DNA of 58,487 nt, taken from a bacterium. GTDB lineage: Bacteria > UBA9089 > UBA9088 > JAGUXG01. The translations under genes and the position numbers were made by a program. Numbering within the stretch: position 1 is the stretch's first letter; every line of letters begins with the position of its first letter. The DNA is taken from NCBI GenBank assembly GCA_030018505.1, contig JASEHO010000001.1, forward strand, positions 1 to 58,487. The letters are read 5' to 3'. Positions 11,313-54,616 of the stretch are shown here, one piece after another. Below the pieces are notes generated by a model. The model saw nothing but the letters and a program-made list of their open reading frames with translations, did no database searches and had not been told where the DNA came from.

Positions 11313-11413
11313 TAAAATTATTGAAAAACTGTCTTAAAGGTTTTATCCCATATCTAACGAGGTTACAGTCTGAGAGTCAGCGGAATTTATCAAGCGGTTT
11401 TAAGACCAAAAGA

Positions 11414-13489: not shown

Positions 13490-13490
13490 T

Positions 13491-14453: not shown

Positions 14454-15511
14454 AGCTTTTTTACCACACAGCCCGGGAAGTAGAAGGAGAGTATCTCCTG
14501 ATAACTTGCACCTTGGCTTGCCATTCCTTTTGCTCCCCACTGGCACATTCCAATGCCGTGTCCCCAGCCTTTTCCAATGAGCTTTATTCCATTCCAGGTC
14601 TCTTCTATCTCAAAGTAGGTTGATTTTATTAGATTAGAGCCAAACATATTTCTGAAATCATTGGCGAGTATAGCCTTTCTTCCACCTTCATAATGGACAA
14701 TTATCTCCTTTGGTCTTCCTTTCCCTGTCCTTTCTACCCTAAAAACCCTGGAAATGCCAATCTTTTCAGCAATATTAGCATAGCTCAGATTGTATTGCCA
14801 ATTATAATGAGGAGAGGCATAGCAATATGGACAGACCTTAGATTTGAAGTAGGGTAAGCTAGGTCCCCAGACATCCCTTATATCTGAAATAAGACCACCA
14901 CAGCAGGCATGGTAATAAACAGGCGCAAGCTCTTCATTATAGCAAAGAACCTCGCTGCTTGTAGCAGAGCAGGCAAGTATAGCCACTTTATCCTCTGCCT
15001 CCATGCCTCCATAGACCTGGCAATGGACATCAGAGCAAAGATCAAAGCCTTCGGCCTTATGTTTTTGGTTGACTAAGGCAAATGTTCTGGCAAGCACAGC
15101 CTGAGCTTTTATTGCTTCAATAGGCCAGTCTGTAGAGATCTCCCTTTTTATTATGCCTGGAAGATAATCTTCAAGGTCAACTATGCTTATGACTAATAGC
15201 CCGCCTCCCTGCCTTCTAATCTCAAAATAGCCTCTATACCTTCTGTTTCCAATCTTGATGTAGCTATCCTGAAGCGGATAGACAAAGACCGGTCCTAAAA
15301 ACTCACCATAAGAAGAGGTTAATATTCCACCTGCAGTTGCTTTAAGCTCAATAGGAGCAGAATACCTTCTGCCAATTAGACTCTCACAGTCATAAAGCTC
15401 AAAGTATCTTGTGCCTGAAATATTAACAATAGAGGTTTGGGTAATCTTTACCCTTAATTCAAAGGAAAAGCCGAGATTTGCCAGGAAGAGGAGAAAAAGG
15501 GCTTTTCTCAC
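14450..15511 (-). CDS. SpoIID/LytB domain protein
   Basis: AQAVLARTFAL, CSDVHCQVYGG, YHACCGG and GHGIGMCQWGA motifs. Confidence 0.85.
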   Translation of the reverse strand: MRKALFLLFLANLGFSFELRVKITQTSIVNISGTRYFELYDCESLIGRRYSAPIELKATAGGILTSSYGEFLGPVFVYPLQDSYIKIGNRRYRGYFEIRRQGGGLLVISIVDLEDYLPGIIKREISTDWPIEAIKAQAVLARTFALVNQKHKAEGFDLCSDVHCQVYGGMEAEDKVAILACSATSSEVLCYNEELAPVYYHACCGGLISDIRDVWGPSLPYFKSKVCPYCYASPHYNWQYNLSYANIAEKIGISRVFRVERTGKGRPKEIIVHYEGGRKAILANDFRNMFGSNLIKSTYFEIEETWNGIKLIGKGWGHGIGMCQWGAKGMASQGASYQEILSFYFPGCVVKKL

Positions 15512-15513
15512 CT

Positions 15514-20069: not shown

Positions 20070-20444
20070 CTATTTACCTAACTTCCGTAAAAAGACTGAA
20101 AGACTCGAGTTCACGGAGAATTCCATTGCAAATTGCAAATTTAGCATTTATCATTTCAAATTTGGAAGATATATGGAGTCCATTAATTAAGTTGACATAA
20201 AAAATGGAGGTGGTTCTTTTTATCGTTTTTCCTAATGATTTCTTTTTGGAAATTAGAAATTAGAAATTGGGGGGAAACAGATATAATTTTCTTCTCTTTT
20301 CCTAATTTCTATTTTCCAATTTCAAATTTCAATATGTCAAATTATTTATTAGATTGCATATAGTATCTTGAGTCGCTATATTTCTTTCCTTAAATTTGCT
20401 TTTGCTAAATTTGAAATGTTAAATTTGCTAGTGAATTTATCTCC
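20066..20444. repeat. Composite nested-palindrome element (hairpin family, largest copy)
   Basis: Starts with the 48-nt module. The outer arms ccattgcaaattgcaaatttagcatttatcatttcaaattt / aaatttgcttttgctaaatttgaaatgttaaatttgctagtg enclose a second palindrome, ggaaattagaaattagaaattgg / ttcctaatttctattttccaatttc. Confidence 0.75.
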
Positions 20445-34000: not shown

Positions 34001-34386
34001 TTCTCTTTTTCCAATTCGCTACGCAATTCCAAACTCTCCTTCTTGCTTTCTCCTTCTATCTCCTTCTTTACTTCAGAGAATGACGGGTAGGAGAAGCTCA
34101 AAGGAGGGGATGAAAGGCTATAAGATGGGACTGCTGGCAGGATGATAGTCTCTTTTTCTTCCTTTTGTTCAGAAGGAAATAGGCCGCCTCCATCGTTTCT
34201 CATAGAGAATAAAGGATTGGTCTTCTTTTGGACAGCCCTTTCTACCTGCTTTATAATCACCCTCTGCTCAGGAAGCAAGAAAAGCCCTTCATCTTTCGCC
34301 AAGCGTTTTTCTATGTCAGGAAGGAGCAAGGTTTCTGCAAAAACCAGGGTAGAGAAGAGACCAAGCAAAAAAAACTTTCTTTTCAT
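28096..34386 (-). CDS. Giant secreted outer-membrane protein (2096 aa), SprA (T9SS translocon)-like
   Basis: Signal peptide MKRKFFLLGLFSTLVFAE, a ~200-aa P/E/K-rich region, and the segment EVNFGDVALEIPGTRFVSYKKSGFGINGKAQFLKNKLGLTAIASREKGESRS, which recalls the SprA GNVSMPL...LFG.K..LQFG...T.V.S signature. It also has Dx[DN]xDG calcium-type repeats (DNDGILDTEDINKDGYLNPGED, DTEDLNGNGILDTDQN) and a beta-barrel-type C-terminus ...YVSIEFKF. The CDS is certain; the SprA call is tentative. Confidence 0.45.
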   Translation of the reverse strand: MKRKFFLLGLFSTLVFAETLLLPDIEKRLAKDEGLFLLPEQRVIIKQVERAVQKKTNPLFSMRNDGGGLFPSEQKEEKETIILPAVPSYSLSSPPLSFSYPSFSEVKKEIEGESKKESLELRSELEKEKKEEVLPEPPLEKVAKTAEEPQPEIPPLRTERVEIPPLEKVVSAEIEKELDRFSVDNELVREAEKLLVERETLKKEEMKDLEPELELAHQKEEKPEAKAEPPKEPEKAKVIPPKVEIAKIPEVIPPKEPEIRPPISMEALTVKATERTKETEKRIETLAYLPSNLQELKTTPGDWAKWRLPEESELTVLGRKFIKMDYNGKNYLNTKEKGKTSNQLNIAQELDVSIKGVVKKKVTVNIDYSDKSTDLADPKKTFEVKYAGEKGEVIQEVNFGDVALEIPGTRFVSYKKSGFGINGKAQFLKNKLGLTAIASREKGESRSKEWTGTQSLVLKDIPVTNYISRRYYQLLAEIPLGTETTEGGRIEYLKAKGYLPIKPGSVKVYIDDQIGDNNYTAEQFTAYTYNHAGSHTGWFDLQYPGDDYTLDYNTGIISIRNSFKDNDVVCLSFIDGKGSLTTNLIIKEDKIEETNHPEWYNLFEIKGYYSLGYGKINPDEANFSLEIKDANGKSWYDADGDGLKDTDEIPYVRLFGLDRETRYDQYGNERPGYGKIDKEFIDQDSGMLKFPDRLPFDFGTTGAKYANRFYIEDTIIAGILSQFSNLLPTLSNPDCYKQTSPSSKYSIHINYPRESMLFTLNELNIVPDSERVYLNGNRLSKPDYRLDYEVGHLTIYRKIAKSDKIRIDYEYAPFLGVYQKSLFGSRLTYAPHKDISLGSTFIGETGAGLKGAPSVTHPSTSLSVFDLNTKVNLINLLKERAGDRSLPLNSLSVEAEMARSTQNPNTYGYGMIDSMDDLEGERTIAINEDSWLLSGISREGKIFYTDSGKQTPFSERAGPYNKDGGHRSDEDQNKQKMLCFELELGTDSSLSEVQSISKDGEDLSEYSHLQVWANAPASSTVKLYIDLGKASEDFDNDGILDTEDINKDGYLNPGEDIGFSFGTLTKVGKSNGKLDTEDLNGNGILDTDQNLSGILVNDEKYYIKTINTAQGWKLYSIPLTDISTSTDFWKVIKDIRLKFKTEAGATYNGSIYIDQIAITGASWEKPMFLKGTGTAILEGKNSKDDADYDFPKDTEEYKNLHKNEKIEKDGLLFLKIEPSTATTLSIRKKLGRFHNYWSYGRLRFWAKSSVGSSSLAFQFGLDNANYFKFTCGTLSSQWKLITLDLARFKEMLAKKQKGTETDQYYILGSPNLGMVKELMFVVESAESDEVWINELHLSEVIERDGEAYFFSVSGGNNKWGSFNMNRSEKSGSFRTLGPASSGEETQSEHFDGKITRIPALTDLSYTYDRSKGNLTFQNVDEVSNQSFGNMLKKDQLVKMSFNPNKIKDKGFPTLYSSWKKNEASYKYEANNNDLVNHEITGGLAYGHTLWKGAKTKAIGLTTNYDYIQKNGTFSNYLDTSTTKKEEATSHSLKNTLTIVPKEYLAGSNISFGGGRRTGRLKYPERTGSATTQEEREATDGAFGLNLKFYPKSPISKRFLGSSSFSSEYSGKLNLSNEDVVYKDCLGTTTNEGLKTEGISNGLIITLSPIKSLTNKYEITDIKNESKSNLAKNTWRTGSCNQANNLTYNIVKGEWLSAESRLYGAQQEAKLKEDASLRLTNRNLKLELNKGFFYPNKTRFKKVKYLNSINSINIDQRFNFNENYCFKTNREPEKKTANMDTYFSLIENFSKLSWKNYGLTPSCGFSLGANAGYDNLPFDEATLVTLANIYEDYYQGLLWKRRGGEGDLYKLAKRTSSSNERKFWINSDWFLYKPMTTNSKFTYTLKETNSLSRADSICQEINNTLNLLSAKPCLTNKFKASEAKANYKIDWSHNYTLSEEQNKTTTHSPYFEWSATWQRPLTTKAILSTTYTKLEERLGVVTNSISIDPSSSFAYDFTKPGFLRVPFTNKKIDLERKLVLNGGLNMSFKRTTKKIPGQKDRKDLNTDYLKLNLSGTYNVQKNLKGTLGANLEYFKDRVLDGKDYIGYGSYVSIEFKF

Positions 34387-34862: not shown

Positions 34863-36899
34863 CTACTCTACCACCTGATACCATTTTTCGTTATGCTTAA
34901 ATATTATATATTTACCAAGGCTCAATATCTTTCCCAGCCCTTTTTCCTTTGTCAGCTTAAAGTATTCATCGCTTAGCCACTTAATCTTCTCTGTCTCTTC
35001 GTTCTTATAGTCTATATCCTGCCAGATACTATTTTTTAAGATATATGTCCTACCTTCAATATATTTTACCCCAGCTACTGTTTTCGGGGCTGTTGTCTTT
35101 TCTTTCAAAGCCATCATCTCCTTAGCCATATGCACAGCCTTCTTGCCAACCTCTGCCTCTTTAAGCTCTCTGAATTTTGCCCTCTCCTCTTCTTCTGTCA
35201 CCAAAAATGATGTATATGGAGTGATAATTCCATATTCTTTGCTTAATGCTTTTATTTCAGAGATTAGCTCTTCGCTTTCTCCATACAGCCTTATCTGATC
35301 AAGAAGATAGCCTATCTTTCTTGTCGCCCATAGCCTGGGAATGAAAGGATGAGCATCAGCTTTCTCTGGAAAGACCAGTTCCTCCACAAACTCCTTCTTC
35401 TTTTCGGAAGCTAAGCCACTCATTGTTATTGTAGCTATGCCTGTTCCTTTATACCTTCCAAAGACAAGAAGCTGGCTATCAAAGAATAGGTCAGGCAGTT
35501 CCTTTGGATATAAATTGTTAGTCTCTACACCCTCTATGGAAAGAAGGATGGAGGATAAAGCAGGGTAAGCTATTTTATCATAAAATGAAGACAAAACTGC
35601 CTCAAGGTCTTCATCCTCTCTCACATAGACTGAAGCACCCTTGTTCTTCTGGGAAATAAGGTCCAAAAGATGGGTGTTGACATTATCTCCAAGACCAAAG
35701 ACAAAAATCCTATTATCCTTGTTCTTCTCTGAGACATTTTTGATAATAGCAGAGATATTCCTCTCCCCTGCTGTAGGTAGGCCATCAGTGAGAAAGATAA
35801 TAATATGTGGCTTTTTTGACTTCTCTTTTCTTATTCCAGTAAGGAGAGCCTCCTGAATGTTTGTTCCGCCCTCTGCTTGTAGATTCTTAATAAACCCTTC
35901 TGCCTCTTTTTTGGTTTTGTCGGATACCTTTACTAAGTCTTTACTGAAGGTCTCAACATCTGTGCTAAATCTGATAATATTGAACATATCTTGGGGATTC
36001 AGGCTATCAAGGCAATACTTCAAAGCCTCCTTTGCCTGAGCAATCTTCTTCCCCCTCATACTGCCAGATGTGTCTAAGATAAAGGTTATATCCTTTTGGA
36101 ATGTAGTCCTCTCTTGTTTTGGAGAAGCAAGCAGGAGAAAGAAGCCTTTCTCATCCTTTTTGTGACAAAGAACAGAGATAGAGACCTCTTCTTCTGCCAG
36201 GGTATAGTAAAGAACAAAATCTTGGTCAGGCAGGCTATTCTCTTCTTTATAAATTACAGCAACCCTATCTTCAGCCTCCCTTTTTACCTCTATCTTATGG
36301 GAGGGAGAATAGACGGATTTTATAGGGCTCTTTGATTCTATCTTCACCTTTATTTCAATATCCCTGATGGCTTTTCCTGTATATTTTTCTATATCTAAGG
36401 GATACCTATATTTCACCACCTTTCCTTCTTTCTTTAAGACCTCTTCATATTTTAATCCAATCTGTTTCTTCCTGAGGGCTGGGATAGGATAAACCCTGCA
36501 CTTAAAGAGGTTTCTGCCTATATACTCTAAAAGCCCTGGATCTTTCATTCTGCGGACAATATCCTCATAGATTTTCCTGGCTTCATCTTTGTCCAGAATC
36601 TGTCCGATGAGCTTTTTCTCCTCAAAAAATAAAGAAAATTCTGAGATAGCAGACTCCTCTGGGAGGGGAAAGAGGTATGTCCCTTCAATATCGTATGGAT
36701 AGGGGTTAATGAATGCCTGGTCTATAGAGGTAGAAGCCAACTGCTCCTTTATCTGGACATTCACATAGTGGTAATCTACGGCCAGAGCTGGTTGTTGAGG
36801 AATATCTGGTTTGGGCGGTCTTGGGATGATAATACCATCAGCCCAGGAGAGGGTAAGTAGCAGACAATAGGTAATGGGTAGCAAGAAAATCTTCTTCAT
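34863..36899 (-). CDS. Secreted VIT + von Willebrand factor A domain protein
   Basis: Signal peptide, a VIT-like N-terminus (YHYVNVQIKEQLASTSIDQAFINPYPYDIEGTYLFPLP), and vWA MIDAS ITFILDTSGSMRG. Confidence 0.8.
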   Translation of the reverse strand: MKKIFLLPITYCLLLTLSWADGIIIPRPPKPDIPQQPALAVDYHYVNVQIKEQLASTSIDQAFINPYPYDIEGTYLFPLPEESAISEFSLFFEEKKLIGQILDKDEARKIYEDIVRRMKDPGLLEYIGRNLFKCRVYPIPALRKKQIGLKYEEVLKKEGKVVKYRYPLDIEKYTGKAIRDIEIKVKIESKSPIKSVYSPSHKIEVKREAEDRVAVIYKEENSLPDQDFVLYYTLAEEEVSISVLCHKKDEKGFFLLLASPKQERTTFQKDITFILDTSGSMRGKKIAQAKEALKYCLDSLNPQDMFNIIRFSTDVETFSKDLVKVSDKTKKEAEGFIKNLQAEGGTNIQEALLTGIRKEKSKKPHIIIFLTDGLPTAGERNISAIIKNVSEKNKDNRIFVFGLGDNVNTHLLDLISQKNKGASVYVREDEDLEAVLSSFYDKIAYPALSSILLSIEGVETNNLYPKELPDLFFDSQLLVFGRYKGTGIATITMSGLASEKKKEFVEELVFPEKADAHPFIPRLWATRKIGYLLDQIRLYGESEELISEIKALSKEYGIITPYTSFLVTEEEERAKFRELKEAEVGKKAVHMAKEMMALKEKTTAPKTVAGVKYIEGRTYILKNSIWQDIDYKNEETEKIKWLSDEYFKLTKEKGLGKILSLGKYIIFKHNEKWYQVVE

Positions 36900-38638
36900 T
36901 TCAACTTATATATAGCAATATCAGGGTTAAGAATGCTCCAGGGATAGTCTTTCTCGTTCTCGTTCTTAAATTTGATTCCAAAGATAGAAGGGGGTTTATC
37001 AAACCTTTTTATCTCCTGATATTGAGAGTTTATGATTGTCTTAAGCCCTTCAGGGACTTGATGAACATTTCTTGCCCAAACAAAATATTGAGGCAAGTTG
37101 TTATCTAAATCTTTTTCTCCCCACCATTTATCCTTTTCCCACCACCTGATTTTATACTTAAATGGGTTTACCAAAGGAGCAGCAAATGGAGTAGGCTGAT
37201 TACAGTATCCGATACTTGCACCTTCCTCTATATTGGCCATCATCCATTTTCCAGATACAAGCCTTATATCCTCCTCAACAAACAATCTATCACAAGCCAA
37301 GGAATATGTAAAAGTGTAGGCTGAAACAGCCAAAAGAATGGCTAATGTAACCCATCGGATTATCCTTTTCTTCTCTAATCCAGTTCCTATAACCCTTGCT
37401 CCCAAGAGTATTAAAAAAGGCAGGAGCCATAGCCCATAGTGGATGTAATTATATGAAGTTGCACTGATGTAAAGATACCCAGGAAAGATAAAGGATAGAA
37501 GTAAGATGTCCTTCTTTTCTCTTTTATACAAGGAAAAGAGGAAACCTGCAGTTATGACAATGAGCAATGGCCATCCACAGCCTGCTGATAAGCTTGCCTT
37601 AAAATAGTAAAAGCAATGTTCAATGGTAAGATTAAAAGGAAGGCATCTTGACAGAAACTTGAACTCATTGACAGCTTTATCTATAGAGACCAAAATGTAT
37701 GGGTTGACAAGCAAATATGATACTATCAAGGCAATTATGGATAAAAATATCCTCTTTTCAAAGATGGAAAGAATTGCTATTCTTCGCTGAGAGACCCGTT
37801 TGATTAGATGGGCTATTAGTATAGTAAGAAAGATAGACCCAAATGGAATCAAGGTTCCACAAGCTATGCCAGTAAAGATGCCAGAAAGGATATAATTAGA
37901 ATACTTATCAGAGTCCAAAATCTTAACAGCATAATAAAATGCAAGGAGATAAAAAGGCAGATTAAAGACATAAGGCTTCATATAGTGGCTGAAAATAGGT
38001 ATTGCTGGCGTAAGACTTAAAAAAAGCGCGGCTATTAAACCAACATTTTTATTATAAAGCAAGGAGCCAAGCAGATAGAATATGTATATAGCTAAAACTC
38101 CCATTAATGCTCCTATCAACCGACCCATAATAAAGATTTTTCCCATTTCGGAAGGATTAAGAAAATAGTATGAGGTATCAGGAGATATGGTGAGAAGATT
38201 AAGGACTGAGGCTATTTTAAGAGATATGGCTACAGAATAGATGTATAATCCTCCATAACTAAAATAATTGGGATTGAAGTCTAAGTTTTTTGGATTCATA
38301 TTTCCCAAAGCAACCAGAGGAACATGTTCATCAGGATAGTAAGAGCGAAGAAGGAAGGAACGAAGAGAGCCTATAAGATATTTAGACATCTTCCTCTCTT
38401 TTGAATCAACTACTACATCATAATAATCCTCCTGAATATTAGTAGGGACACCAAAATATTTTGTTTTAGCATAGATCTCATCTCTGGTCTCCTTCATTAT
38501 CGCCGATAGATCTTTTATCTCTTGCTCATTAGAGAAGAGCAATTTTAGACGCTCCTTACTTGGAATCCCTCCCCATATTCCATAAGTATTTAAGAATAAG
38601 GAGACCAAACAAATAGCTGCTAAACAAATTTTTTTCAT
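36896..38638 (-). CDS. GT-C fold (ArnT/PMT-like) polytopic membrane glycosyltransferase
   Basis: More than 10 predicted TM helices, a YYPDEHVP acidic loop motif, and a ~100-aa C-terminal soluble domain. 4-nt overlaps on both sides. Confidence 0.55.
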   Translation of the reverse strand: MKKICLAAICLVSLFLNTYGIWGGIPSKERLKLLFSNEQEIKDLSAIMKETRDEIYAKTKYFGVPTNIQEDYYDVVVDSKERKMSKYLIGSLRSFLLRSYYPDEHVPLVALGNMNPKNLDFNPNYFSYGGLYIYSVAISLKIASVLNLLTISPDTSYYFLNPSEMGKIFIMGRLIGALMGVLAIYIFYLLGSLLYNKNVGLIAALFLSLTPAIPIFSHYMKPYVFNLPFYLLAFYYAVKILDSDKYSNYILSGIFTGIACGTLIPFGSIFLTILIAHLIKRVSQRRIAILSIFEKRIFLSIIALIVSYLLVNPYILVSIDKAVNEFKFLSRCLPFNLTIEHCFYYFKASLSAGCGWPLLIVITAGFLFSLYKREKKDILLLSFIFPGYLYISATSYNYIHYGLWLLPFLILLGARVIGTGLEKKRIIRWVTLAILLAVSAYTFTYSLACDRLFVEEDIRLVSGKWMMANIEEGASIGYCNQPTPFAAPLVNPFKYKIRWWEKDKWWGEKDLDNNLPQYFVWARNVHQVPEGLKTIINSQYQEIKRFDKPPSIFGIKFKNENEKDYPWSILNPDIAIYKLK

Positions 38639-46321: not shown

Positions 46322-49300
46322 TTATATGTTAACTTCTTTGCCACATCTTTTCTCCTTTAATTTCTCCTCTATTACTTTTGCCAATTTGGGATAGCGGCGG
46401 AAATACCAGTTCTCTACCTCTTTGGTGTCGTCTTCGTTCAGGTTGTACATCTGATAGACCAGCTTGTCTATCTCTATTTGCTCGTTGGTCATGTAGTCGT
46501 AGCGGAGGTTTTGCTTTTGCTTGGTGATGATTTGGGAGATGAGGATTTTTAATCTATTTAGGTTTGTCAGCAAAAGAATCTTTTTAACATCTTCTATTCC
46601 ATAATTCACTGTGTGATTAATAAATATTCTGGATAAATAGCGGGTTAGCTTAGAACATAACAGGCCCAACACTTCTTCTATGTCATGTGCAATGTTGAGA
46701 ATATCAGAACTACCATGATCAAAAGGTCCTTCGTAATTTAATCTGAAGGTAGGACAATATATGCCAGCCCAAGAAAAGCTTATCCCCTTCCTGAAATAAA
46801 AATCAGCGTTCTGGAATCTGGAGCACAATTTATTAGATCCCCTGCCGTCTCTCTCCACAATCGTTAGGGTCTTCATCCTCCTGACCGCCTCTTCTGACCA
46901 ATCGATAAAGTAATCCGTCGGCACATAGTAATTAGGCAGCCAGCCTTCTTCGATGTCAGAGGCACCTCCCTTGTCGTAAGGCACAAAATATCTCCTGCCA
47001 AAATATCGCTCAGGGTCTTTGCCCCTTTCCTTGCAAATCCCTTTTTCAATAACCCGTTTCCTCAATTCCTCATCATTGACAATCCTTTCCAGATCATCTT
47101 CAGTTAAAACCAGATCAAAATCCACCATTGGATAGTTCTTGCCAACGCCCTTAATCCGTTCCCTTGATTGTCTCAGATAGTAATCATTATCACCTGTTGC
47201 CAACCCCTGTTTCACCTCAGCCACATCCCCAAGCTTCACCAGCTCCAGCTCCTTGCCATTAAACTCCACCAGATAGGTATCTGGCTCTTTATCTACCTCT
47301 CCCAGTTCAAACTCTCTATGCTTCTTATTCCCCACATCCCGCATCAAGCCAAAGAGCTTTGGTGAGGCAATGAAGAATGAATGATTGGAAAAGCGGGTGA
47401 TAAGCTTCTGTCTGTAAGCAAAGATAGCCATATCTCTATCAGACCAAATTGTATCACCATCCTTTGACTCATCAAAGCCCTTGTGTTCCATCAGTAGCTC
47501 AAAGGCAGCCTCTACATCTCCTTTTTCAATAGACAGCGGTGAGAAATCCGCAGCTAATATCCAGTTATTTCCACCTTCTTCGGGTTTAAATCGTTTAATA
47601 AAGGAGTAAACCCCAGGATTGACTGTGGCGGCAAAGGTATCATTTGGCACAGAGATTAGGTATTGAACATCAGTTTGACTTAACAACTGGTCGCGTAATT
47701 CCTTGTGAGTTCGGATAGTCTGCCAGGTGTCAGACATAATGAAGGAGAGTGTGCCACCTGGTCGAAGTATCTTCAAGGCAAGAGAGGTAAACAGACCATA
47801 GCTATCTTTGCTTCCCAGCCTAAACTCATCCTTGACTGTTGTGGGCACCTTCACCCCATAGGGCGGGTTGCCGATAACAATATCAAACCCTTCCTTCATC
47901 GATATAATCTCAAAGAAATCCAGCCCCCAGTTAAAGAGATTGCAAAGGCTATCGACATTATTCAAATGCCCCTGCAACTTTTGTATCTCTTTTTTAATTA
48001 TCTCCTTAAAAGGCAATTCCGCCTGACTTTTATATTCCGCAAATAGTTCCAGTTGACTCTCTAATCGAGCCAATTCCTGTTCTGCTTCCTTTATTTTCAT
48101 CCTGAAGAACCATCTGACCAAATCTTTCTTTGCCCTCTCTATCTTAACCTTCGCCTTATCCTTGGCCTCTTTGGTAGGTAACTCCTCGTAATCTCTTTTG
48201 AGCTTTACGAAATTATCCAGCAAATCAGCGCCTTGCGTATCTAATTTAACCTTCTTTTCTATATCAAAGGGATAATCACCAACCTTTGATATTAGGCTGT
48301 CCCCTTCAATGATATGGAAGTCAAGGTTAGGAAGTGGTGGAATATCCTTAATATCCTCTACCTCTAAATCAACTATCAGAGAAAGCCACAATCGCAGGTT
48401 AGCCAGATTGACCGCCCTTCTTTGAATATCCACGCCATAGATATTATTCTCAATAATCTGGCGCTTCAGGTGATAGCGGTAATCCTTCTGTTCTGTTTTT
48501 TGGAGTGCATTGACCATGTCAATGCATGCATCGTCACGGACGATGCACTCCATATTAGAATCAATCGCCTTAACAATCTCCACCATCTTGAGCAAAATCC
48601 CCACAGCAAAAGCCCCAGAGCCAACCCCAGGGTCAACAATCTTGACCTTTAATAATGCCTCTCTTATTCCAGTCAGTTCATCTTCTGCAAAACCATCCAC
48701 ATCTAAATTAAACACCAGTCTTCTTAGCAGATTTTTGTTTATATTATTAGCGGATAAATAATTTAGAAGGGAGTGCTTAACCATAAAAGCCACAATAAAC
48801 TTAGGGGTGTAATAGCTCCCTGTGCTCCGTCTGGGATCAGGAATATCTTTAAACTCCTGATGTTCAAGGTTCAAAATCAACTGCTCAAAGATAGTTCCCA
48901 GCATCTCAGGGTCAATAGCCACTTCCTGCTCAAATTCGGTATCCTCACGAACAGTAAAATTATATCGTTCTAACAGGTCGGAAAATATAACCTTAAAAAT
49001 CTCATTGGGTATGATGACCTCTTCCTCTGTATCCTCATACTCAAACAAGCCGCCGTTTAAGAAAGGGATATTGTTAAATCGACCGTTGCTATACTTGGGA
49101 TTAGAGAGTTTTTTAAAGACTGGTATCAAAAACTCCTGGTAATAATTTACCTTGTCTTTTAGGCATAACTTAAGATTATCATAAAGATAATAGGGGTTTT
49201 CATTCAGTAGCCTCTTCTTCTGAATATAGTAGAGGAAAAAGAGACGGTTAAAGAGATTTTGGGTAAATAAATCTGCCTTCTCCTGGGTTATCTTATTTGT

Positions 49301-49870
49301 CCTTTTAACCTCATCCCGAAGTAGCTTGTAATAGTGAACAAAGTCTCGATAAAAATCTCTGGTAACTGCCTCTACATCAAAGGCCTGGTTACATCTATTA
49401 TGGATAACCAAAGGGGAATCAGAATCAGATACCTCTAACAGGGCTATTCTTTCTGCGGCAGTTCTGAGCCGTTCGGTCTTTCCAACAACAATCCTTCTAA
49501 ATGGCCGTATTTTTCTTTCGAGCTTTTGCTTTTCTAGTTCAATATATTTTAGACTGGTAAAATGCCACTCTGAGAAATCCGGGCTGGTAAAAACAACTAA
49601 GGAATGAGAATAACGGTTTGCAATCTGATTAAATATTTCGCGTTCATCTCCCTTTAGAAGACGCTTTATCCGACACAGGATAATCTTAAACTCACCTAAC
49701 TCAGCAATGATCTTCAGGTCTTCAACTTGTGGTTGATATTTAGGGGTGAGCACTTCAAGAATATTTTGCCTGCTCATCTCGAAGTCAAGCTCTTCTATAA
49801 AGAGTCTGGCGAGATCGGCTTCGGTATTCAAAGCCTCAAGTAATTCTCTGATGCGTTTCGAATCAGCCAT
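46322..49870 (-). CDS. Eco57I/PglX-like gamma-class N6-adenine DNA methyltransferase with a C-terminal target-recognition domain
   Basis: STGSYYTPKFIV (motif X), VDPGVGSGAF (motif I, nt 48608-48634), VIGNPPYG (motif IV, NPPY at nt 47858-47869), and a TRD-type KLGDVAEVKQGLATGDNDYYL. The N-terminal module reads ...FRRIVVGKTERLRTAAERIALL...FDVEAVTRDFYRDF. Confidence 0.85.
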   Translation of the reverse strand: MADSKRIRELLEALNTEADLARLFIEELDFEMSRQNILEVLTPKYQPQVEDLKIIAELGEFKIILCRIKRLLKGDEREIFNQIANRYSHSLVVFTSPDFSEWHFTSLKYIELEKQKLERKIRPFRRIVVGKTERLRTAAERIALLEVSDSDSPLVIHNRCNQAFDVEAVTRDFYRDFVHYYKLLRDEVKRTNKITQEKADLFTQNLFNRLFFLYYIQKKRLLNENPYYLYDNLKLCLKDKVNYYQEFLIPVFKKLSNPKYSNGRFNNIPFLNGGLFEYEDTEEEVIIPNEIFKVIFSDLLERYNFTVREDTEFEQEVAIDPEMLGTIFEQLILNLEHQEFKDIPDPRRSTGSYYTPKFIVAFMVKHSLLNYLSANNINKNLLRRLVFNLDVDGFAEDELTGIREALLKVKIVDPGVGSGAFAVGILLKMVEIVKAIDSNMECIVRDDACIDMVNALQKTEQKDYRYHLKRQIIENNIYGVDIQRRAVNLANLRLWLSLIVDLEVEDIKDIPPLPNLDFHIIEGDSLISKVGDYPFDIEKKVKLDTQGADLLDNFVKLKRDYEELPTKEAKDKAKVKIERAKKDLVRWFFRMKIKEAEQELARLESQLELFAEYKSQAELPFKEIIKKEIQKLQGHLNNVDSLCNLFNWGLDFFEIISMKEGFDIVIGNPPYGVKVPTTVKDEFRLGSKDSYGLFTSLALKILRPGGTLSFIMSDTWQTIRTHKELRDQLLSQTDVQYLISVPNDTFAATVNPGVYSFIKRFKPEEGGNNWILAADFSPLSIEKGDVEAAFELLMEHKGFDESKDGDTIWSDRDMAIFAYRQKLITRFSNHSFFIASPKLFGLMRDVGNKKHREFELGEVDKEPDTYLVEFNGKELELVKLGDVAEVKQGLATGDNDYYLRQSRERIKGVGKNYPMVDFDLVLTEDDLERIVNDEELRKRVIEKGICKERGKDPERYFGRRYFVPYDKGGASDIEEGWLPNYYVPTDYFIDWSEEAVRRMKTLTIVERDGRGSNKLCSRFQNADFYFRKGISFSWAGIYCPTFRLNYEGPFDHGSSDILNIAHDIEEVLGLLCSKLTRYLSRIFINHTVNYGIEDVKKILLLTNLNRLKILISQIITKQKQNLRYDYMTNEQIEIDKLVYQMYNLNEDDTKEVENWYFRRYPKLAKVIEEKLKEKRCGKEVNI

Positions 49871-50468
49871 TTATTAAACCCTCCACATTTGCTTCTTCAA
49901 TTAACTTAACGCCATCCCTTAGATATCCAACATTCAAATGGTGTTTTAGGAGATAAACTATCTTCTCTTTCTGAAGGCACTTTTCGTATAAAGCTTCCAG
50001 GTGCCCACCGGGATTGATGTAAAGAAATAAATAACAGTCTATCAACTTTAATATCAATTTATCCCTGACCTGTACTCTCTTAATCGAGATACATTTTTGT
50101 TTCAGGTATGGCGAAATTACCAGTAGATTGCCTTCATTGTATGGCTTTTCAAGATAATCTGGCAAGCTAAAGCTTTTGATACCCTTAGCCAGAAAATAGA
50201 TTATTTGAGCACAAGCAGAGGTATTTTGAGCCTTGTAGTTTTTTAACATCCTTTTCTCCATAACCGACTGCCAGCCACCAGCCAGGACTATAGGTAGTGA
50301 TAGCATTCTCAAGAAAAGCTCATTTGCCTGATGATAAATACTTAAAGGAATCTCTCTTGAGCAAAACACTGCCACTGTACTTTTTTTAAGCAATTCTATC
50401 TTGCCTGAATAATAGAAATCATTCTGTTTAATTCCTTCCATAGTGAATCTCACATTCAAAATGCTCAA
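49863..50468 (-). CDS. DprA/Smf-like Rossmann (SLOG-type) protein
   Basis: STVAVFCSRE...PIVLAGGWQSVMEKRML...LLVISPY...VQVRDKLILKLIDCYLFLYINPGG follows the layout of the DprA core (AIVGSR / SGLA.GID / LLSE.P / F..RNR.I..L....vvvEa...SG). The TTG start at 50468 has AGGA 9 nt upstream; an alternative ATG lies at 50441. Its stop overlaps the methyltransferase ATG by 8 nt (ATGGCTGA). Confidence 0.55.
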   Translation of the reverse strand: MSILNVRFTMEGIKQNDFYYSGKIELLKKSTVAVFCSREIPLSIYHQANELFLRMLSLPIVLAGGWQSVMEKRMLKNYKAQNTSACAQIIYFLAKGIKSFSLPDYLEKPYNEGNLLVISPYLKQKCISIKRVQVRDKLILKLIDCYLFLYINPGGHLEALYEKCLQKEKIVYLLKHHLNVGYLRDGVKLIEEANVEGLING

Positions 50469-50492
50469 AAAGCAAATTCCTATCAGTTCAGC

Positions 50493-53400
50493 TTAAACCA
50501 AAATCTCCCCACAAATAAATTCTATTGACTCAACTTTTGAGGGAGACTTAAACCTATTGACAATTTCACCTAACTTCTCTTTATTATAGATATTGACCAG
50601 TTCGTTGAAATACTCTTCTTCTGAGTATTTTTGTTTATTTAGTCTTTTCAGGACTGGGACTAAGTGATAAGGAAAATATTCATTCAGGGCAGCATCTATC
50701 TTCTCAGCATTTTCAATAAAATCTTGAGTTTCTGCATCAGAAATAAGTTCCTGAAGCCTCCTCTTTGTTCTTCTAACCTCAGGATGAACTCGCTCTTTAA
50801 TCTCACCTTTTTCAAGTGATGCTTTAGTAAAAGCTTTTAACTCATTTAAGTCATTAAAGTATCTCTCCTTATCTTTCCCTGTAACTGCTTTTTCAGGACA
50901 GTGTCTTTCGCATCGAATCTCATTAATTACTTTTGAAAAGTCGTCAATAATAGTCCCATCCGGTTGTTTTATTAATAAGTTAGCTCGGCAACCACTTCGG
51001 AAAAAAGCATAAGTGCCCTTACTTCCCACACCTTCTTTTGCTGAGCGAAGTCCTAATTGCATCTTCTTTATCAGAGAAAGGTACTCAGGGTTATCCTTTT
51101 CAATTTGTCTGATAATATTCTCTGCCTCTTCAAAGCTAAATTCAACATCCCCTTGTTTCTCAAGCTCGTCAATATCCTTTTTATCATAAATGGTGTACAT
51201 TGCCTCTTGATTAAGCTGCTCATCTTCCTCTAATATCTGACTATCCTCACCGATATATGAATGGATTTCCTCAATCCTTCTTTGCAAATGGTCTTTCAGA
51301 TTAATCTCCTTTTCTACTTCATCAACAGGCAAAAAGTTTCTCACCAAAATAACATCAGCCTTTGAGCCAATCCTATCCACCCTTCCAGCGCGTTGTATCA
51401 GTCTAACAGGATTCCAATGAAGGTCATAATTTATTACTGCACTGCAATCCTGCAAATTATGTCCTTCTCCTAAGACATCTGTAGCAACCATAATATCAAT
51501 TCTTTCCTGACCATCGTAGTCATTGGCCTCTGGAGAAAATGCTTGAATCTTTCTTAATATATTCTTTGTATCACCTGTGGCATAATCTACCAGTTCAAAG
51601 CTCTTTGTCAATTTATCCTTCAAGTAGTTAACCGTATCTGCATATTCACTGAAGATTAAAATCTTCTCTTTTTTATCCTGGTATTTAATTTCCTCGATAA
51701 TCTCTCTAAGTCGTTCCAGTTTTTTATCATCGTCTTCAGGTATGGTATTCAGGTCTTTGGACACTTTTTCAAAAATATCTATGTCATGTTTCAAGTCCTT
51801 TTTTAATTTAGCAATATCAAAATCCTCCGCCTTATAATCTTTGGCTAATTCTTCTATTCCATCCAATAGACCATTAAGGTCACAACGGTACATCCTTTCC
51901 TGTATCTTTTCTCCAGCCGGCACTATCCCTTTTTTCTCAACTACTGTTTTGAACTTCATATAAATCCCAAGAAGGTTTTTAATGGTCATCCTGAAGGCAA
52001 ATATGGAGCTTTCCAGCCTTTTGAAAAGATTTATCTTGTGAAACACCTTCAGAGTACCTACAACACCTTTTAAGTCTGTATATGGCTTTTGATTCTTTTT
52101 ATCATCAAGCACATACTTCCACAGATTATAGCGAGCATAAGTCAGACTACTTAATAATCCTCTAATCTGTTTATAGAGGTTATGGTAAGTATCGTTGATG
52201 TTGTAAGTGATGGTCTTCAAATCTCTTTCAGGGAATTCAATCTCAAATTCATCCTGGCCTTTATAAAATTGCTTGATATGGTTTCTTGTTCTTCTAATCA
52301 GGATATGCTTTAGCAATTCTTTGATAGGGAATTTACCTTCCTCTGCTTTTTTAAATAGGTTCCTTAGATGAGCCTCTCCCACTGGAAAGATATTTTCTTC
52401 ACTTTGAGCAAAGAGCTTTATCTGGTTATAGATATTCCAGAGAGAGGTGTTTTGTGGGGTAGCGGTCATCAGGATAACCTGCTTGTTTATCAGGAAAGGT
52501 TGGAGTTCTTGATACATTTTAGCCTTACTGTTTCTGAAATGGTGACTTTCATCAATCAAGACTACATCTCTACCCTCATATTTCTTCAAGATACTTTCTT
52601 TATTATAACTTCCTTTATATAGCATCCCGCGAGAGATAATCTGCAAATCAATCTTGAACTTCTCGCCAAATTTTTCCCACATCTCAACCAGCCCCGGAGG
52701 AGAAATAACCAGAGCACGCTTATTTAACTGACGCAAAAGCCCTGCTCCAATAAAGGTTTTTCCCAGACCAACCACATCACTAATAAACACACCGTTATAC
52801 TCATTCAACCATTGATATGCCTGCATAATGGCTACCTTCTGAAAAGAATAGAGCGGCGGCATATCATCCCAATTCCAGATGGTTGAGGTATGTTTTTCAA
52901 GATTGCCCTTAACTAAATGATAAAGGGTAAGGATGTAAATATCATAAGGGTTGACTGTCTTTAATGCCCAGGACTCTTCAATCTTTGAGGTTAATTCCTG
53001 CTCAAAATCAATCGCCTCCTCCCAGAGCTTATCAAACCAGTCATTCATCTCTTCAAAGTTTTTTTGACCCCTGACATAGGTGTTCAGTTCAGTATTGTGG
53101 TGAAATCCGCTTATGGTAAGGTTGCTTGAGCCAATAATCCCAATTCCTTCGGCGGCTGAAGCCCTGGCCACATCATCCTTATGCTTAAAGATATACGCCT
53201 TGGCATGAAGCGGGTGTTTGGTGTAAAGTTTGATTTTTATCTTTCTACTTTTTATCAACTTACAAAGTCGGCGTAGTTTATCTTCCTTGTCTAATGAATG
53301 AGGAAGGGCGGCGATATTTGAACCAACAGCATTACCTATGGTTGTTTTTATCTTCTCCTTTTCAGATTTACGCTGGATTTCAACATCTTCTTTCAGTTCT

Positions 53401-53630
53401 TCTTCGCTGGCAATATTTTCTGCTAAGAATTCAATAGCATCTTTACTCAGAGTGCCAGCCAGAATTTTAGCATTTTCAAGCTCCCCTAATCTCTCGGCAA
53501 TCTGGTAGAGTCCGGAGGGATAGAGGTAACCCACTGCAAACTTTACCTCTTTTGCTCCACTAAGCCGGTCGTTAATCTCGTCCTTTAAGTATTTCTTTCT
53601 ATTGTCAATGATGTCTGAATAATCACCCAT
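50493..53630 (-). CDS. PLD (HKD) nuclease domain fused to an SNF2-family helicase/translocase
   Basis: HKD-type LHAKAYIF...GIIGSSNLT (aa 142-170, nt 53121-53207). SNF2 motifs: DVVGLGKT (I, GLGKT at nt 52755-52769), DESHHFRN (II), LMTATPQNT (III), QRAGRVDRIGS (VI). AAGGAG lies 7 nt before the ATG. Confidence 0.85.
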   Translation of the reverse strand: MGDYSDIIDNRKKYLKDEINDRLSGAKEVKFAVGYLYPSGLYQIAERLGELENAKILAGTLSKDAIEFLAENIASEEELKEDVEIQRKSEKEKIKTTIGNAVGSNIAALPHSLDKEDKLRRLCKLIKSRKIKIKLYTKHPLHAKAYIFKHKDDVARASAAEGIGIIGSSNLTISGFHHNTELNTYVRGQKNFEEMNDWFDKLWEEAIDFEQELTSKIEESWALKTVNPYDIYILTLYHLVKGNLEKHTSTIWNWDDMPPLYSFQKVAIMQAYQWLNEYNGVFISDVVGLGKTFIGAGLLRQLNKRALVISPPGLVEMWEKFGEKFKIDLQIISRGMLYKGSYNKESILKKYEGRDVVLIDESHHFRNSKAKMYQELQPFLINKQVILMTATPQNTSLWNIYNQIKLFAQSEENIFPVGEAHLRNLFKKAEEGKFPIKELLKHILIRRTRNHIKQFYKGQDEFEIEFPERDLKTITYNINDTYHNLYKQIRGLLSSLTYARYNLWKYVLDDKKNQKPYTDLKGVVGTLKVFHKINLFKRLESSIFAFRMTIKNLLGIYMKFKTVVEKKGIVPAGEKIQERMYRCDLNGLLDGIEELAKDYKAEDFDIAKLKKDLKHDIDIFEKVSKDLNTIPEDDDKKLERLREIIEEIKYQDKKEKILIFSEYADTVNYLKDKLTKSFELVDYATGDTKNILRKIQAFSPEANDYDGQERIDIMVATDVLGEGHNLQDCSAVINYDLHWNPVRLIQRAGRVDRIGSKADVILVRNFLPVDEVEKEINLKDHLQRRIEEIHSYIGEDSQILEEDEQLNQEAMYTIYDKKDIDELEKQGDVEFSFEEAENIIRQIEKDNPEYLSLIKKMQLGLRSAKEGVGSKGTYAFFRSGCRANLLIKQPDGTIIDDFSKVINEIRCERHCPEKAVTGKDKERYFNDLNELKAFTKASLEKGEIKERVHPEVRRTKRRLQELISDAETQDFIENAEKIDAALNEYFPYHLVPVLKRLNKQKYSEEEYFNELVNIYNKEKLGEIVNRFKSPSKVESIEFICGEILV

Positions 53631-53718: not shown

Positions 53719-53903
53719 GTAACTATTTACCTAACTGAAGCAAAAAGACTGAAAGACTCGAGTTCACGGAGAATTTCACTAGCAAATTTAACAAAAGCAA
53801 ATTGATTATTTTAATTTGTAATGCTAAATGCTAAATTTGCAATTTGCTAGTGATCTTCTGTGCCCTCTGGTTAATCTTTACTTCAGATGGCTAAAGTGTT
53901 ATC
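53719..53903. repeat. Hairpin element, copy H
   Basis: gtaactatttacctaactgaagcaaaaagactgaaagactcgagttcacggagaatttcactagcaaattt ... aaatttgcaatttgctagtg ... ttacttcagatggctaaagtgttatc. The right end overlaps the pyrE stop. Confidence 0.75.
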
Positions 53904-54447
53904 ATAACCCTAAATCTTCTCGTGTAAAGATAGAGATAAAGTTATAGCCTTTTTCAGCAAACCTCTCTTTTGCACCCTCCAGCCTATCAACTATGGCGAT
54001 CACCTTTATTACTTTGCAACTGGCTTTTTCAACCTCAGAAATAGCCTTTTCTATAGAACCTCCTGTAGTAACAACATCATCCACAATCACCACCCTGGAG
54101 CCTTCTTTAATGGGACCCTCAATAAGCTTCATCATTCCATGTTTTTTGGGACTATTTCTAACAATAAAGGCTGGAATAGGAAAACCCTCTTTATAGCTTA
54201 TAGCAGCGACTGCTGAGACAATTGGGTCAGCGCCTATGGTCAGACCCCCAATCCCATCAACATTATCTTTCTTTAGCAATTCTATAATAATCTTTGCTAC
54301 CAGAAATGCCCCTTCAGGGTCTAAGGTTACCAGCTTTCCATCTATATAATAATGGCTTTTGCGACCAGAGGACAACTCTGCCGCCACCTTTTTAAGGGCT
54401 TTATCTTTGAGTATCTTCAATAACCTGCTTTTTTCTTTTTCTAACAT
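53902..54447 (-). CDS. pyrE: Orotate phosphoribosyltransferase
   Basis: PRPP-binding site VVIVDDVVTTGGS. The ATG at 54447 (MLEKEKSRLL) is preferred. Confidence 0.85.
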   Translation of the reverse strand: MLEKEKSRLLKILKDKALKKVAAELSSGRKSHYYIDGKLVTLDPEGAFLVAKIIIELLKKDNVDGIGGLTIGADPIVSAVAAISYKEGFPIPAFIVRNSPKKHGMMKLIEGPIKEGSRVVIVDDVVTTGGSIEKAISEVEKASCKVIKVIAIVDRLEGAKERFAEKGYNFISIFTREDLGL

Positions 54448-54541
54448 CACTATAAAATATACCAAAACTATAATTTCGGTTTTCAAAAACCGAACAATTT
54501 AAAATTTTGGCTCTTCTTTCGATTAATGGATAGTAATTATC

Positions 54542-54616
54542 TGGCTCCGCGGGCTGGATTCGAACCAGCAACCTAATGGTTAACAGCCATCCACTCTACC
54601 GTTGAGCTACCGCGGA
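54542..54616 (-). tRNA. tRNA-Asn (anticodon GTT), CCA encoded
   Basis: The reverse complement reads TCCGCGG TA GCTC AACGGTA GAGT G GATGG CTGTTAA CCATT AGGTT GCTGG TTCGAAT CCAGC CCGCGGA G CCA. Confidence 0.9.

Follow-up and report, generated by a model that had tools for sequence, protein, structure and literature searches.

A Swi2/Snf2-type (SNF2) helicase and a PglX-like DNA methylase together form the shared heart of several defence systems, namely class 1 DISARM, ARMADA, BREX type 3 and the BREX-related systems with MANTIS. The locus considered here codes for such a pair and, between the two genes, for a small DprA-like protein; it lies on contig JASEHO010000001.1 (GenBank assembly GCA_030018505.1) of a bacterium of the GTDB lineage UBA9089, of which positions 1 to 58,487 were analysed (this whole stretch of 58,487 nucleotides is called the window in the following). 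The genome was assembled from a metagenome (protein QME07_00220). The locus is best described as an unnamed minimal member of the restriction-like group built from SNF2 helicases and PglX-like methylases, closest to MANTIS, and not as a new category, and our analysis leans towards the view that it is a compact restriction-modification-like defence module built on this pair. New is the third subunit with a DprA fold, which is found in one clade and was previously undescribed.

The closest characterised system, MANTIS (Gao_RL, BREX-related type 2), was not considered in the original prediction for this locus, which had been made from the DNA letters alone. The BREX-related systems, which are centred on DUF499, were defined by Rakesh and Krishnan (PMC12839542), and in their type 2 a DUF499 ATPase of the AAA+ class is joined by an N6-methylase, a DUF3780 protein and a helicase in which an HKD nuclease replaces the N-terminal TUDOR domain (PMC12839542). 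Shaw et al. have characterised this type as MANTIS with the components MtsA-D (bioRxiv 10.64898/2026.09.23.753747). The methylase MtsC, which depends on MtsB, a small protein, and on the AAA+ loader MtsA, hemimethylates asymmetric sites of 6 bp and directs both methylation and restriction; the effector is MtsD, a dimeric protein with a phospholipase D-type (PLD) nuclease and an SF2 helicase, and restriction is strongest with inverted sites (bioRxiv 10.64898/2026.09.23.753747). The cryo-EM structure of MtsD shows that the dimer builds one PLD active site (bioRxiv 10.64898/2026.09.23.753747). Cleavage by MANTIS has so far not been reconstituted in vitro. ARMADA, in turn, brings together a PglX-like methylase and two helicases, one YprA-like and the other a SNF2 helicase resembling BrxHII (PMC12458937).

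With MANTIS the locus has in common an N-terminal HKD/PLD domain fused to a Swi2/Snf2-type ATPase, a PglX-like methylase that bears the specificity, and a small extra protein tied to the methylase. It differs from MANTIS in that the DUF499 AAA+ loader (MtsA) and the DUF3780 protein (MtsB) are absent from the locus and in that the small protein has a DprA Rossmann fold, whereas MtsB is without structural relatives, for which reason the idea that MtsB could itself be a protein of the SLOG/DprA type was dropped. The absences in the window refer to Pfam scans of the 10 flanking ORFs (open reading frames) and of 13 further ORFs, mostly the largest ones: DUF499/MtsA, DUF3780/MtsB, YprA/DrmA, DUF1998/DrmB, PglZ and BrxC were found in none of them, and none of these families recurs in the neighbourhood of the more than 80 related loci. 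The small gene of the trio likewise has no Pfam match to DUF3780.

The original prediction had stated that the core of DISARM (DrmA and DrmB/DUF1998) is absent from the locus, and so is that of BREX (PglZ, BrxC and BrxL); both statements were borne out, the former in the scanned window ORFs and among the recurrent neighbours alike. What remains in common with class 1 DISARM is the combination of a PLD nuclease, a SNF2 helicase and a large N6-adenine methylase, but here the PLD domain forms part of the SNF2 protein instead of a separate DrmC. With BREX and ARMADA the locus shares a methylase that is homologous at the profile level to PglX/BrxX, and it also shares with them the pairing of a SNF2 gene (BrxHII in BREX type 3) with a methylase gene (PMC12458937); unlike these systems, however, it is without PglZ, BrxC, BrxA/B/L and the YprA-like helicase, and its helicase carries a nuclease of its own. 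A check of the three proteins against PADLOC, which had been proposed with the original prediction, likewise found no model that assigns them to a named system, and the scores of the NCBIfam equivalogs are all far below cut-off (DrmD, 148.8 vs 610 bits; DrmC_I, 15.1 vs 133 bits; BREX_1_MTaseX (PglX), 131.2 vs 500 bits).

The three genes are, as had been claimed, closely packed and co-directional (Table 1). For the small gene two starts have to be considered: read from a TTG the ORF extends from 50468 to 49863 and codes for 201 aa, and the database relatives begin at the ATG at 50441 (MEGIKQ), which gives 192 aa and makes the TTG an alternative start. The stop of the helicase gene is 51 nt away from this ATG and 24 nt away from the TTG. 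The small gene, which ends in TGA, and the methylase gene, which begins with ATG, overlap by 8 nt (ATGGCTGA, 49863-49870). On one side the trio is flanked by genes for an RNase_H-like exonuclease, aroK, skp/OmpH and lpxD, and on the other side by pyrE (53902-54486; match to TIGR00336 above cut-off with 148 bits vs 106.8), a gene for tRNA-Asn (54542-54616) and one for a glucose-1-phosphate cytidylyltransferase, which confirms the flanking exonuclease-aroK-skp-lpxD and pyrE/tRNA-Asn genes as they had been named.

Table 1. Positions in the window of the three genes, their functional parts and the intergenic hairpin.
Feature	Position	Strand	Basis
HKD(PLD)-Swi2/Snf2 nuclease-translocase, 1045 aa, predicted restriction subunit	50493..53630	-	ORF, Pfam, PADLOC, Foldseek of AlphaFold2 model
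Single HKD half-site (H142, K144 ... G167-S-S-N170) in PLD domain (~residues 1-210)	53121..53207	-	invariant in 60 family members
Swi2/Snf2 ATPase core (~residues 255-780): GLGK291, DESH360-363, TATPQN, QRxGRxxR746-753	51291..52868	-	Pfam, alignments, structure match
C-terminal region of nuclease-helicase (~residues 830-1045): small beta-sheet and helical bundle	50496..51143	-	secondary structure of AlphaFold2 model
DprA-fold (SLOG superfamily) small protein, 192 aa, clade-specific third component	49863..50441	-	AlphaFold2 model, Foldseek, PADLOC
Eco57I/PglX-type gamma-class N6-adenine DNA methyltransferase with N-terminal helical domain and variable C-terminal target-recognition domain, 1182 aa	46322..49870	-	Pfam, PADLOC, PDB profile search
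Nested inverted repeat, AT-rich, within the 271 nt that separate pyrE from nuclease-helicase gene; candidate promoter/operator of the operon and/or pyrE terminator	53770..53859	.	complementary arms, RNA fold, recurring 13-mer

In the 1045-aa protein Pfam recognises the domains PLDc_2, SNF2-rel_dom and Helicase_C, besides a partial match to ResIII (5e-8, residues 327-393). The motifs that had been quoted for the helicase and the methylase in the original prediction are all present, and the family alignments show little or no variation in them. In the nuclease-helicase they are HAKAYIF (142-148), GSSN (167-170), GLGKT (288-292), DESH (360-363), TATPQN (389-394) and QRAGRVDRIG (746-755); an alignment of 60 sequences has as invariant residues, next to those of the HKD half-site, K291 of the Walker A motif, DES360-362, TATP389-392 and Q746/R747/R750/R753. 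In BfiI and SauUSI two HKD half-sites, contributed by a dimer, make one PLD active site. Because there is only one HKD motif per chain, the nuclease-helicase, too, is predicted to require dimerisation for one PLD active site.

The AlphaFold2 model of the nuclease-helicase (mean pLDDT, the predicted local distance difference test score, 77) has as top Foldseek matches Swi2/Snf2 remodellers and RapA (E ~1e-16), and SauUSI aligns to it over 892 columns (E 8.5e-14, rank 35). SauUSI and CglI/NgoAVII resemble the protein in the coupling of a PLD nuclease with an SF2 ATPase and in that a dimer is probably needed for the active site. There are, however, differences: SauUSI belongs to Type IV, recognises modified DNA by a reader of its own and has no partner methylase, CglI has nuclease and helicase on separate proteins and a C5 methylase, and the motor found here is closer to the Swi2/Snf2 remodellers and RapA. 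The C-terminal region (~830-1045) is without a Pfam match, and conservation in it (C907, Y1015, C1040) is confined to the family. Sequence-only searches of the PDB returned generic SNF2 cores only, and in viral collections no full-length phage copy of the nuclease-helicase was found.

The top PADLOC model for the nuclease-helicase is the unnamed 'C3a139 HKD+Snf2' (6.7e-68, residues 6-855), which goes back to an unnamed cluster in a 2018 survey of genes neighbouring type III CRISPR loci (PMC6546367). The other PADLOC matches cover mainly the helicase lobes, DrmD being the second-best family (1.8e-36), followed by BrxHI/II, HmaA (1.5e-26) and PLD_Helicase (5.5e-25). With respect to MANTIS it should be noted that the PLD_Helicase and HmaA models score near 1e-25 and align to the C-terminal helicase lobes only, as against 7e-68 for 'HKD+Snf2', and that the comparison was made at the level of PADLOC models.

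In the 1182-aa protein Pfam finds Eco57I (9e-28) and N6_Mtase. Its methylase motifs are YYTP (353-356), DPGVGSGAF (413-421) and NPPY (668-671), of which YTP354-356, D413/G417-S-G419 and NPPY668-671 vary little or not at all among 47 full-length homologues. In the same alignment residues 750-1050 are rich in gaps and poorly conserved, a hypervariability that is as expected for a target-recognition domain (TRD) conferring specificity, to judge from the alignment. Of the PADLOC models REase_MTase_IIG scores best (2.8e-46), before PglX (2.7e-32) and DrmMI (2.8e-27), and a profile of the methylase family retrieves from the PDB CamA (1e-52), BseCI, PglX (8c45, 1e-29), BrxX (9ewz, 2e-25) and MmeI (5e-19), its C-terminal half being aligned with the TRDs of CamA, BseCI and MmeI. 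The protein thus has the layout of Type IIG/IIL enzymes (MmeI, Eco57I), in which a C-terminal recognition domain comes after the motifs of a gamma-class N6-adenine methylase. This does not mean that the protein is a complete Type IIG enzyme, and the alignments argue that it is not. A hidden nuclease of the MmeI type (D51-x8-E60-x-K62) was considered and rejected, as no residue of it is conserved in the 47 homologues or in the clade with the DprA-like gene. Because D51, E60 and K62 are not conserved, the methylase is, like PglX, without a conserved nuclease, and the only nuclease predicted for the operon is the HKD domain of the nuclease-helicase. In one locus with an otherwise complete trio the methylase is 829 aa long (L001:10665-13154; loci in other genomes are given with the letter L), with a full N-terminus and a shortened C-terminal recognition part, and may be a truncated or frameshifted copy.

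The unit that is conserved across genomes is the pair of nuclease-helicase and methylase. An alignment of the nuclease-helicase was scanned against one genome per GTDB species; at least 598 stretches of 600 candidates were confirmed, and 80 loci were kept. Of the 80, 59 also encode a homologous methylase (~500-1600 aa), which in every case shares the strand of the nuclease-helicase. Either gene may come first, with about the same frequency; as a rule the reading frames overlap or are separated by less than 50 nt, and sometimes 1-6 kb of variable genes lie between them. All-against-all clustering of the 1104 neighbouring genes of the 80 loci yielded no other recurrent partner family. The pairing spans bacteria and archaea and is also found on plasmids of Thermococcus profundus and Pelobacter propionicus, where the genes are annotated just as 'helicase-related protein' and 'DNA methyltransferase'. 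Among the cultured organisms with the two-gene form are Pelobacter propionicus (plasmid pPRO1, PPRO_RS18265/18260), Chlorogloeopsis fritschii PCC 6912, Gillisia sp. JM1, Algoriphagus lutimaris and Paraclostridium bifermentans. This pattern suggests that the two genes are a conserved functional unit. Since the pair is present under such generic annotations in hundreds of bacterial and archaeal species, it is probably undercounted by the tools used for finding defence systems.

Where a methylase is missing (20 loci), the contig is mostly short. Flanks of 4 kb or more on either side are present in four of these loci (L006, L012, L017 and L066), and in L066 the nuclease-helicase is split into two ORFs. 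L083, L053 and L058 have a nuclease-helicase without a methylase and a flank of ~10 kb on the upstream side only. In L006 a HEPN-nucleotidyltransferase protein is encoded just upstream of the solitary nuclease-helicase. A more distant pair in the order helicase > methylase (L105:279-9414) is followed by a phage-type integrase and a DprA-like fragment of 137 aa, and this is the only locus in which a recombinase was observed beside the pair. The pair has been listed earlier, as a 'Type II restriction-modification' coding sequence adjoining one for 'phospholipase D + SNF helicase', for two loci that undergo programmed inversion, in a table by Milman et al. (2023, PMC9881135). Apart from this table and the cluster in PMC6546367, a literature search of incomplete coverage retrieved no paper in which the pair is named or tested and none that describes a DprA-like partner.

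For the small protein the Pfam score alone would be misleading, since it stays below threshold for DprA (PF02481; 12.7 vs 29.6 bits). The AlphaFold2 model, which was calculated from 22 homologues and has a pLDDT of 90.7, is nevertheless matched best by the Rossmann domains of DprA (5mll, 3uqz and 4ljr; TM-score 0.73, E 3e-10), next by the DprA-like antitoxin ShosA (8zva, E 5e-9) and more remotely by MCP, LOG and YpsA of the SLOG superfamily, so that the DprA-like nature that had been proposed for the third gene is confirmed at the level of the fold. Sequence-only searches of the PDB were uninformative for this protein. Its sole PADLOC match is a weak one to PsyrA (4.9e-4); nearer outgroup proteins match PsyrA at 1.5e-22 and ShosA at 9e-7. 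PF02481 is matched by some members of the family and by all of the nearer outgroups, beyond which there are ordinary short PF02481 proteins, some of them with a helix-turn-helix fusion. The family comprises 54 clusters at 90% identity, with 41 representatives at E<=1e-30 among 1.84 billion. IMG/VR contained no relative of the DprA-like gene, and a viral structure library gave weak matches only.

A single Rossmann domain fills the 192 aa, and SAM, winged-helix and phosphoribosyltransferase (PRTase) domains are absent. The invariant residues of the family (S28, G55-G-W-Q-S59, E62, F83-L-A-K-G87, S110, R126, G146 and N170) are located in the model directly after the beta-strands of the Rossmann sheet and would line the crevice in which such folds usually bind their ligand or DNA. 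The fold and the predicted position of the conserved residues in this crevice are features that the protein shares with DprA/Smf, ShosA and PsyrA. It is, however, shorter than ShosA and PsyrA and without their extra domains, and, unlike in ShosTA and PsyrTA, there is neither a ShosT PRTase nor a PsyrT RecQ-helicase toxin beside the gene. A role like that of ShosT was considered for the PRTase gene upstream of the trio and discarded, since this gene is a genuine pyrE and is absent from other trio loci.

The DprA-like gene accompanies the close relatives of the nuclease-helicase of the window (59-85% identity); in the 80 nuclease-helicase loci it was not found, even with a broad DprA profile at E<=1. 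An archaeal clade of nuclease-helicases takes an intermediate place, with ~47% identity. The match lists suggest that nuclease-helicase and DprA-like genes share contigs in eight cases among the matches listed. The order helicase > DprA-like > methylase seen in the window is replaced by DprA-like > methylase > helicase in L001 and L098, by DprA-like > methylase > inserted genes > helicase in L002, L093, L097, L099 and L102-L104, by methylase > inserts > helicase > DprA-like in L087 and by helicase > DprA-like in L094, and in L003, L085, L086, L088 and L095 the contig ends after DprA-like > methylase. All these arrangements are rotations of one cyclic order, helicase > DprA-like > methylase. 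In most loci of the trio clade the stop of the DprA-like gene overlaps the start of the methylase gene by 4-35 nt. Orphan copies of the DprA-like gene occur in L004 and L096/L091. The names of the sources of trio-clade genes include Poribacteria, Desantisbacteria, Thermodesulfobacteriota, Thermodesulfovibrionales, Cloacimonas and Marinimicrobia.

When seven complete trios are compared, nuclease-helicase, DprA-like protein and methylase agree in their sister pairs, and the pairwise identities of one protein correlate with those of the others (Spearman 0.55-0.72); the DprA-like protein evolves fastest. Because of this agreement and correlation the trio is considered to be co-inherited as a unit, and yet it is an elaboration, specific to one clade, of a two-gene system. 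The expectation that the trio is conserved as a neighbourhood across phyla was therefore correct in so far as the trio recurs in several phyla within one clade, but the wider core is the helicase-methylase pair without the DprA-like gene.

In several genomes other genes are found within these operons. In one subclade of the trio (L002:6350-9010, L087:2801-5462 and L093:4080-6742) a Ser/Thr kinase of 670 aa and a protein of 214 aa without Pfam or PADLOC match are encoded between methylase and nuclease-helicase. The best PADLOC match of the kinase is mad6 of the MADS system (1e-62), and PD-T4-6 is also matched; the arrangement is reminiscent of PglW in BREX type 2. In L097 a kinase-TPR (tetratricopeptide repeat) protein of 1217 aa is encoded just downstream (12117-15770). 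An AbiE-type toxin-antitoxin pair (DUF6577 and AbiEii) is located between methylase and nuclease-helicase in Cloacimonadota (L099:6052-8004, L102:13055-14859) and on the Thermococcus profundus plasmid; further coordinates of this pair are L100:5352-6981 and L004:10974-12697, where in L004 it comes after the orphan DprA-like gene. In L002 a small MJ0235/TumE pair of the toxin-antitoxin kind occupies the slot between methylase and nuclease-helicase, and other loci, too, have such pairs there. It seems that other defence genes use the operon as a docking site. In one population of Cloacimonadota (L099 and L102-L104; 17 contigs) the whole system is located inside the dcw (division and cell wall) cluster, between murG and murC (~9000-18000 in L102). 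One of these loci, L103, has a shortened methylase and a nuclease-helicase split into two ORFs, which suggests a decaying copy.

The domains bear out the split architecture that had been proposed, with nuclease and motor on one protein, methylase and specificity on another and a DprA fold on the third, and it seems quite likely to us that this architecture serves a restriction-modification-like defence with the following division of labour. The methylase would read a short, probably asymmetric DNA site via its variable C-terminal domain and methylate adenine at N6, which would mark the DNA of the host as self. On unmethylated DNA the site-bound methylase would recruit or license the HKD-Swi2/Snf2 protein, which would dimerise, form one PLD site from two HKD half-sites, translocate on double-stranded DNA at the expense of ATP and then cut. 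The outcome would be a restriction similar to that of Type III enzymes and of MANTIS, but without an AAA+ loader. The original prediction of a split restriction-like machine is retained with respect to the domain architecture and to the absence of a named system; it has to be modified in that the conserved unit consists of two genes, that the relation to MANTIS was missed and that the reading of the locus as an island is weak.

Both Type III enzymes (e.g., EcoP15I) and Type ISP enzymes (e.g., LlaGI) derive, as envisaged here, their specificity from a methylase with a recognition domain and restrict by a nuclease-fused SF2 ATPase via ATP-driven long-range communication. The resemblance to Type III is functional only: the nuclease is a PLD and not a PD-(D/E)xK enzyme, the motor is of the Swi2/Snf2 and not of the Res type, and the methylase is of the Eco57I type and not a Mod subunit. 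Type ISP enzymes differ in that they consist of one polypeptide instead of two or three, and their nuclease is Mrr and not PLD; the motor found here is not RecG-like. The PLD type of nuclease is metal-independent, as opposed to the PD-(D/E)xK and Mrr nucleases of Type III and Type ISP.

For the DprA-fold protein we tentatively propose that it is a cofactor of the methylase: it would bind single- or double-stranded DNA and assist the methylase, either in its loading or by stimulation, so that the balance of modification against restriction would depend on it, and it would thereby do part of the job of MtsA and MtsB. This reading is put forward because the DprA-like gene is translationally coupled to the methylase gene in most loci, even when the helicase gene is kilobases away. 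There are two precedents for it: the DprA of Helicobacter pylori physically interacts with DNA methyltransferases, which it stimulates, and acts as a block on restriction enzymes (PMC3597690), and in MANTIS the small protein is required for methylation (bioRxiv 10.64898/2026.09.23.753747).

It should be noted that several observations weigh against the proposed mechanism. Most of the wider family is without the DprA-like gene, which can therefore not be essential to the basic mechanism. The order of the genes cannot tell whether the DprA-like protein has the methylase or the helicase as its partner, and in L087 and L094 its gene comes after the helicase gene with no methylase downstream. Intact solitary nuclease-helicase genes (~10000-13350), surrounded by unrelated genes, with flanks of ~10 kb on each side and no methylase, are present in L006, L012 and L017, so that the effector may act by itself. 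The locus is located among housekeeping genes and not in a defence island. Finally, the methylase of MANTIS cannot bind DNA without the AAA+ loader (bioRxiv 10.64898/2026.09.23.753747), and a loader-free version may therefore work differently.

The rival that comes closest keeps the restriction-modification-like core and makes the DprA-like protein an antitoxin-like brake or sensor, which in the manner of ShosA and PsyrA would hold back the HKD-Swi2/Snf2 protein until it is titrated by single-stranded DNA or RecA filaments of an invader. PsyrA is a DprA-like antitoxin that neutralises a RecQ-helicase toxin. ShosA is the structural neighbour of the small protein among defence proteins, PsyrA is its sole PADLOC match and the nearer outgroups match both; moreover, the neutralisation of the toxin by ShosA needs the binding of single-stranded DNA and RecA (PMC12961424), and in the window, L087 and L094 the DprA-like gene directly follows that of the helicase. 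Yet in most loci it is to the methylase gene that the DprA-like gene is coupled, with the helicase gene 3-6 kb off behind inserts (L002, L093, L099 and L102), many relatives with the pair only tolerate the same nuclease-helicase without any brake, and ShosA and PsyrA are the longer, multidomain proteins. We consider a brake somewhat unlikely and slightly favour the cofactor role. Distinctly less probable appears to us a function of the DprA-fold protein as a single-stranded DNA sensor that would recognise the mode of entry or replication (transformation, conjugation, or phage recombination and replication forks) and switch between methylation and cutting; if true, the AAA+ checkpoint of BREX and MANTIS would have a counterpart that needs no loader, and a DNA-binding protein of the competence type would for the first time have been found as a recruit in the core of a restriction system.

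The remaining explanations dispense with the module as such. It is in our opinion very improbable that independent elements lie here side by side, i.e., a solitary or Type IIG-like methylase, a SauUSI-like ATP-dependent nuclease (perhaps targeting modified DNA) and an unrelated DprA-like gene. Solitary family members do exist (L006, L012, L017 and L083), SauUSI is both a self-sufficient PLD-helicase enzyme and a structural neighbour, and the best PADLOC scores of the methylase are those of Type IIG models; but same-strand pairing in 59 of 80 loci of bacteria and archaea, in both orders and with overlapping or abutting frames, speaks against this, the divergence of the three proteins is correlated, the methylase has no conserved nuclease motif, and a nuclease for modified DNA beside an m6A methylase would harm its own host. 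Still a little less probable is a role outside of defence, as an epigenetic or DNA-processing module, e.g., in methylation-based gene regulation or in the processing of incoming DNA in transformation, of which one is reminded by the housekeeping surroundings in the window, by the dcw cluster in Cloacimonadota and by the fact that the DprA fold is best known from transformation. Such a role is at odds with the intact PLD nuclease fused to a translocase, the hypervariable recognition domain, the patchy carriage across phyla including plasmids, the defence genes (kinases and toxin-antitoxin pairs) that several genomes have within the operon, the decayed copy in one population (L103) and the lack in the small protein of the SAM and winged-helix domains of canonical DprA. 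Hardly to be expected is, at last, that the locus is a fragment of a named system (MANTIS/BREX-related type 2, class 1 DISARM, ARMADA or BREX) of which the other genes are elsewhere or lost. Helicase and methylase are indeed homologous to DrmD/DrmMI and BrxHII/PglX, and the helicase also to HmaA and the PLD_Helicase model. However, the partners DUF499, DUF3780, YprA/DrmA, DUF1998, PglZ and BrxC are missing both from the scanned larger ORFs of the window and as recurrent neighbours in the related loci, the equivalog scores are far too low, and the compact form is itself conserved and widespread.

A version with two or three genes, in which the nuclease is located on the helicase and an AAA+ loader is absent, would be the simplest system in which to study how methylase and effector are coupled. 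With its DprA fold the partner protein would be an accessory subunit of a sort that is new to restriction-modification, with ties to the stimulation of methyltransferases by DprA, to ShosA and to PsyrA.

The original prediction had also pointed to a hairpin at the 5' flank of the trio and had taken it as a sign of an inserted island. The hairpin stands: its 19-nt arms are 89% complementary and carry the 13-mer AATTTGCTAGTGA and repeats of the TAAATTTGCT type, and the z-score of the RNA fold is -5.6. An AT-rich motif composed of TAAATTTGCT repeats and the exact AATTTGCTAGTGA is found at 53776-53859 and again at 20390-20434, both times between genes and in the second case ~80-120 nt upstream of another ORF (start near 20512); the organism may use it as a promoter or operator. 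Because the motif recurs upstream of a gene, the hairpin looks more like a promoter, an operator or a terminator than like the scar of an insertion. The sequence TAAATTTG presumably fits the TAnnTTTG -7 element of Bacteroidota-type promoters. An integrative island linked to the tRNA is not supported, since pyrE lies between the trio and tRNA-Asn, no integrase was found in the Pfam scan of the flanking ORFs and the GC content of the trio (0.36-0.44) overlaps that of the flanks without a clear compositional break; no search was made for direct repeats on either side of the trio. The differing insertion sites in other genomes are a better argument for mobility than the hairpin: the system is flanked by yajQ and hisD in L001, by murG and murC within the dcw cluster in L099 and L102-L104, and is placed beside gcvP in L098.

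Some other genes of the window may be mentioned. An ORF of 2096 aa on the minus strand (28096-34386), without a Pfam match at E<=0.001, adjoins genes for a VIT-VWA protein (34863-36899) and a PMT_2-type glycosyltransferase (36896-38638). A protein of 691 aa (11414-13489, minus strand) has GreA/GreB domains in its last 150 residues only and a long N-terminal part without a Pfam match at threshold. On the plus strand a second DNA methylase gene (N6_N4_Mtase, 526 aa; 5847-7427) is followed by an ORF of 257 aa (7520-8293), and these two genes may belong to another restriction-modification system.

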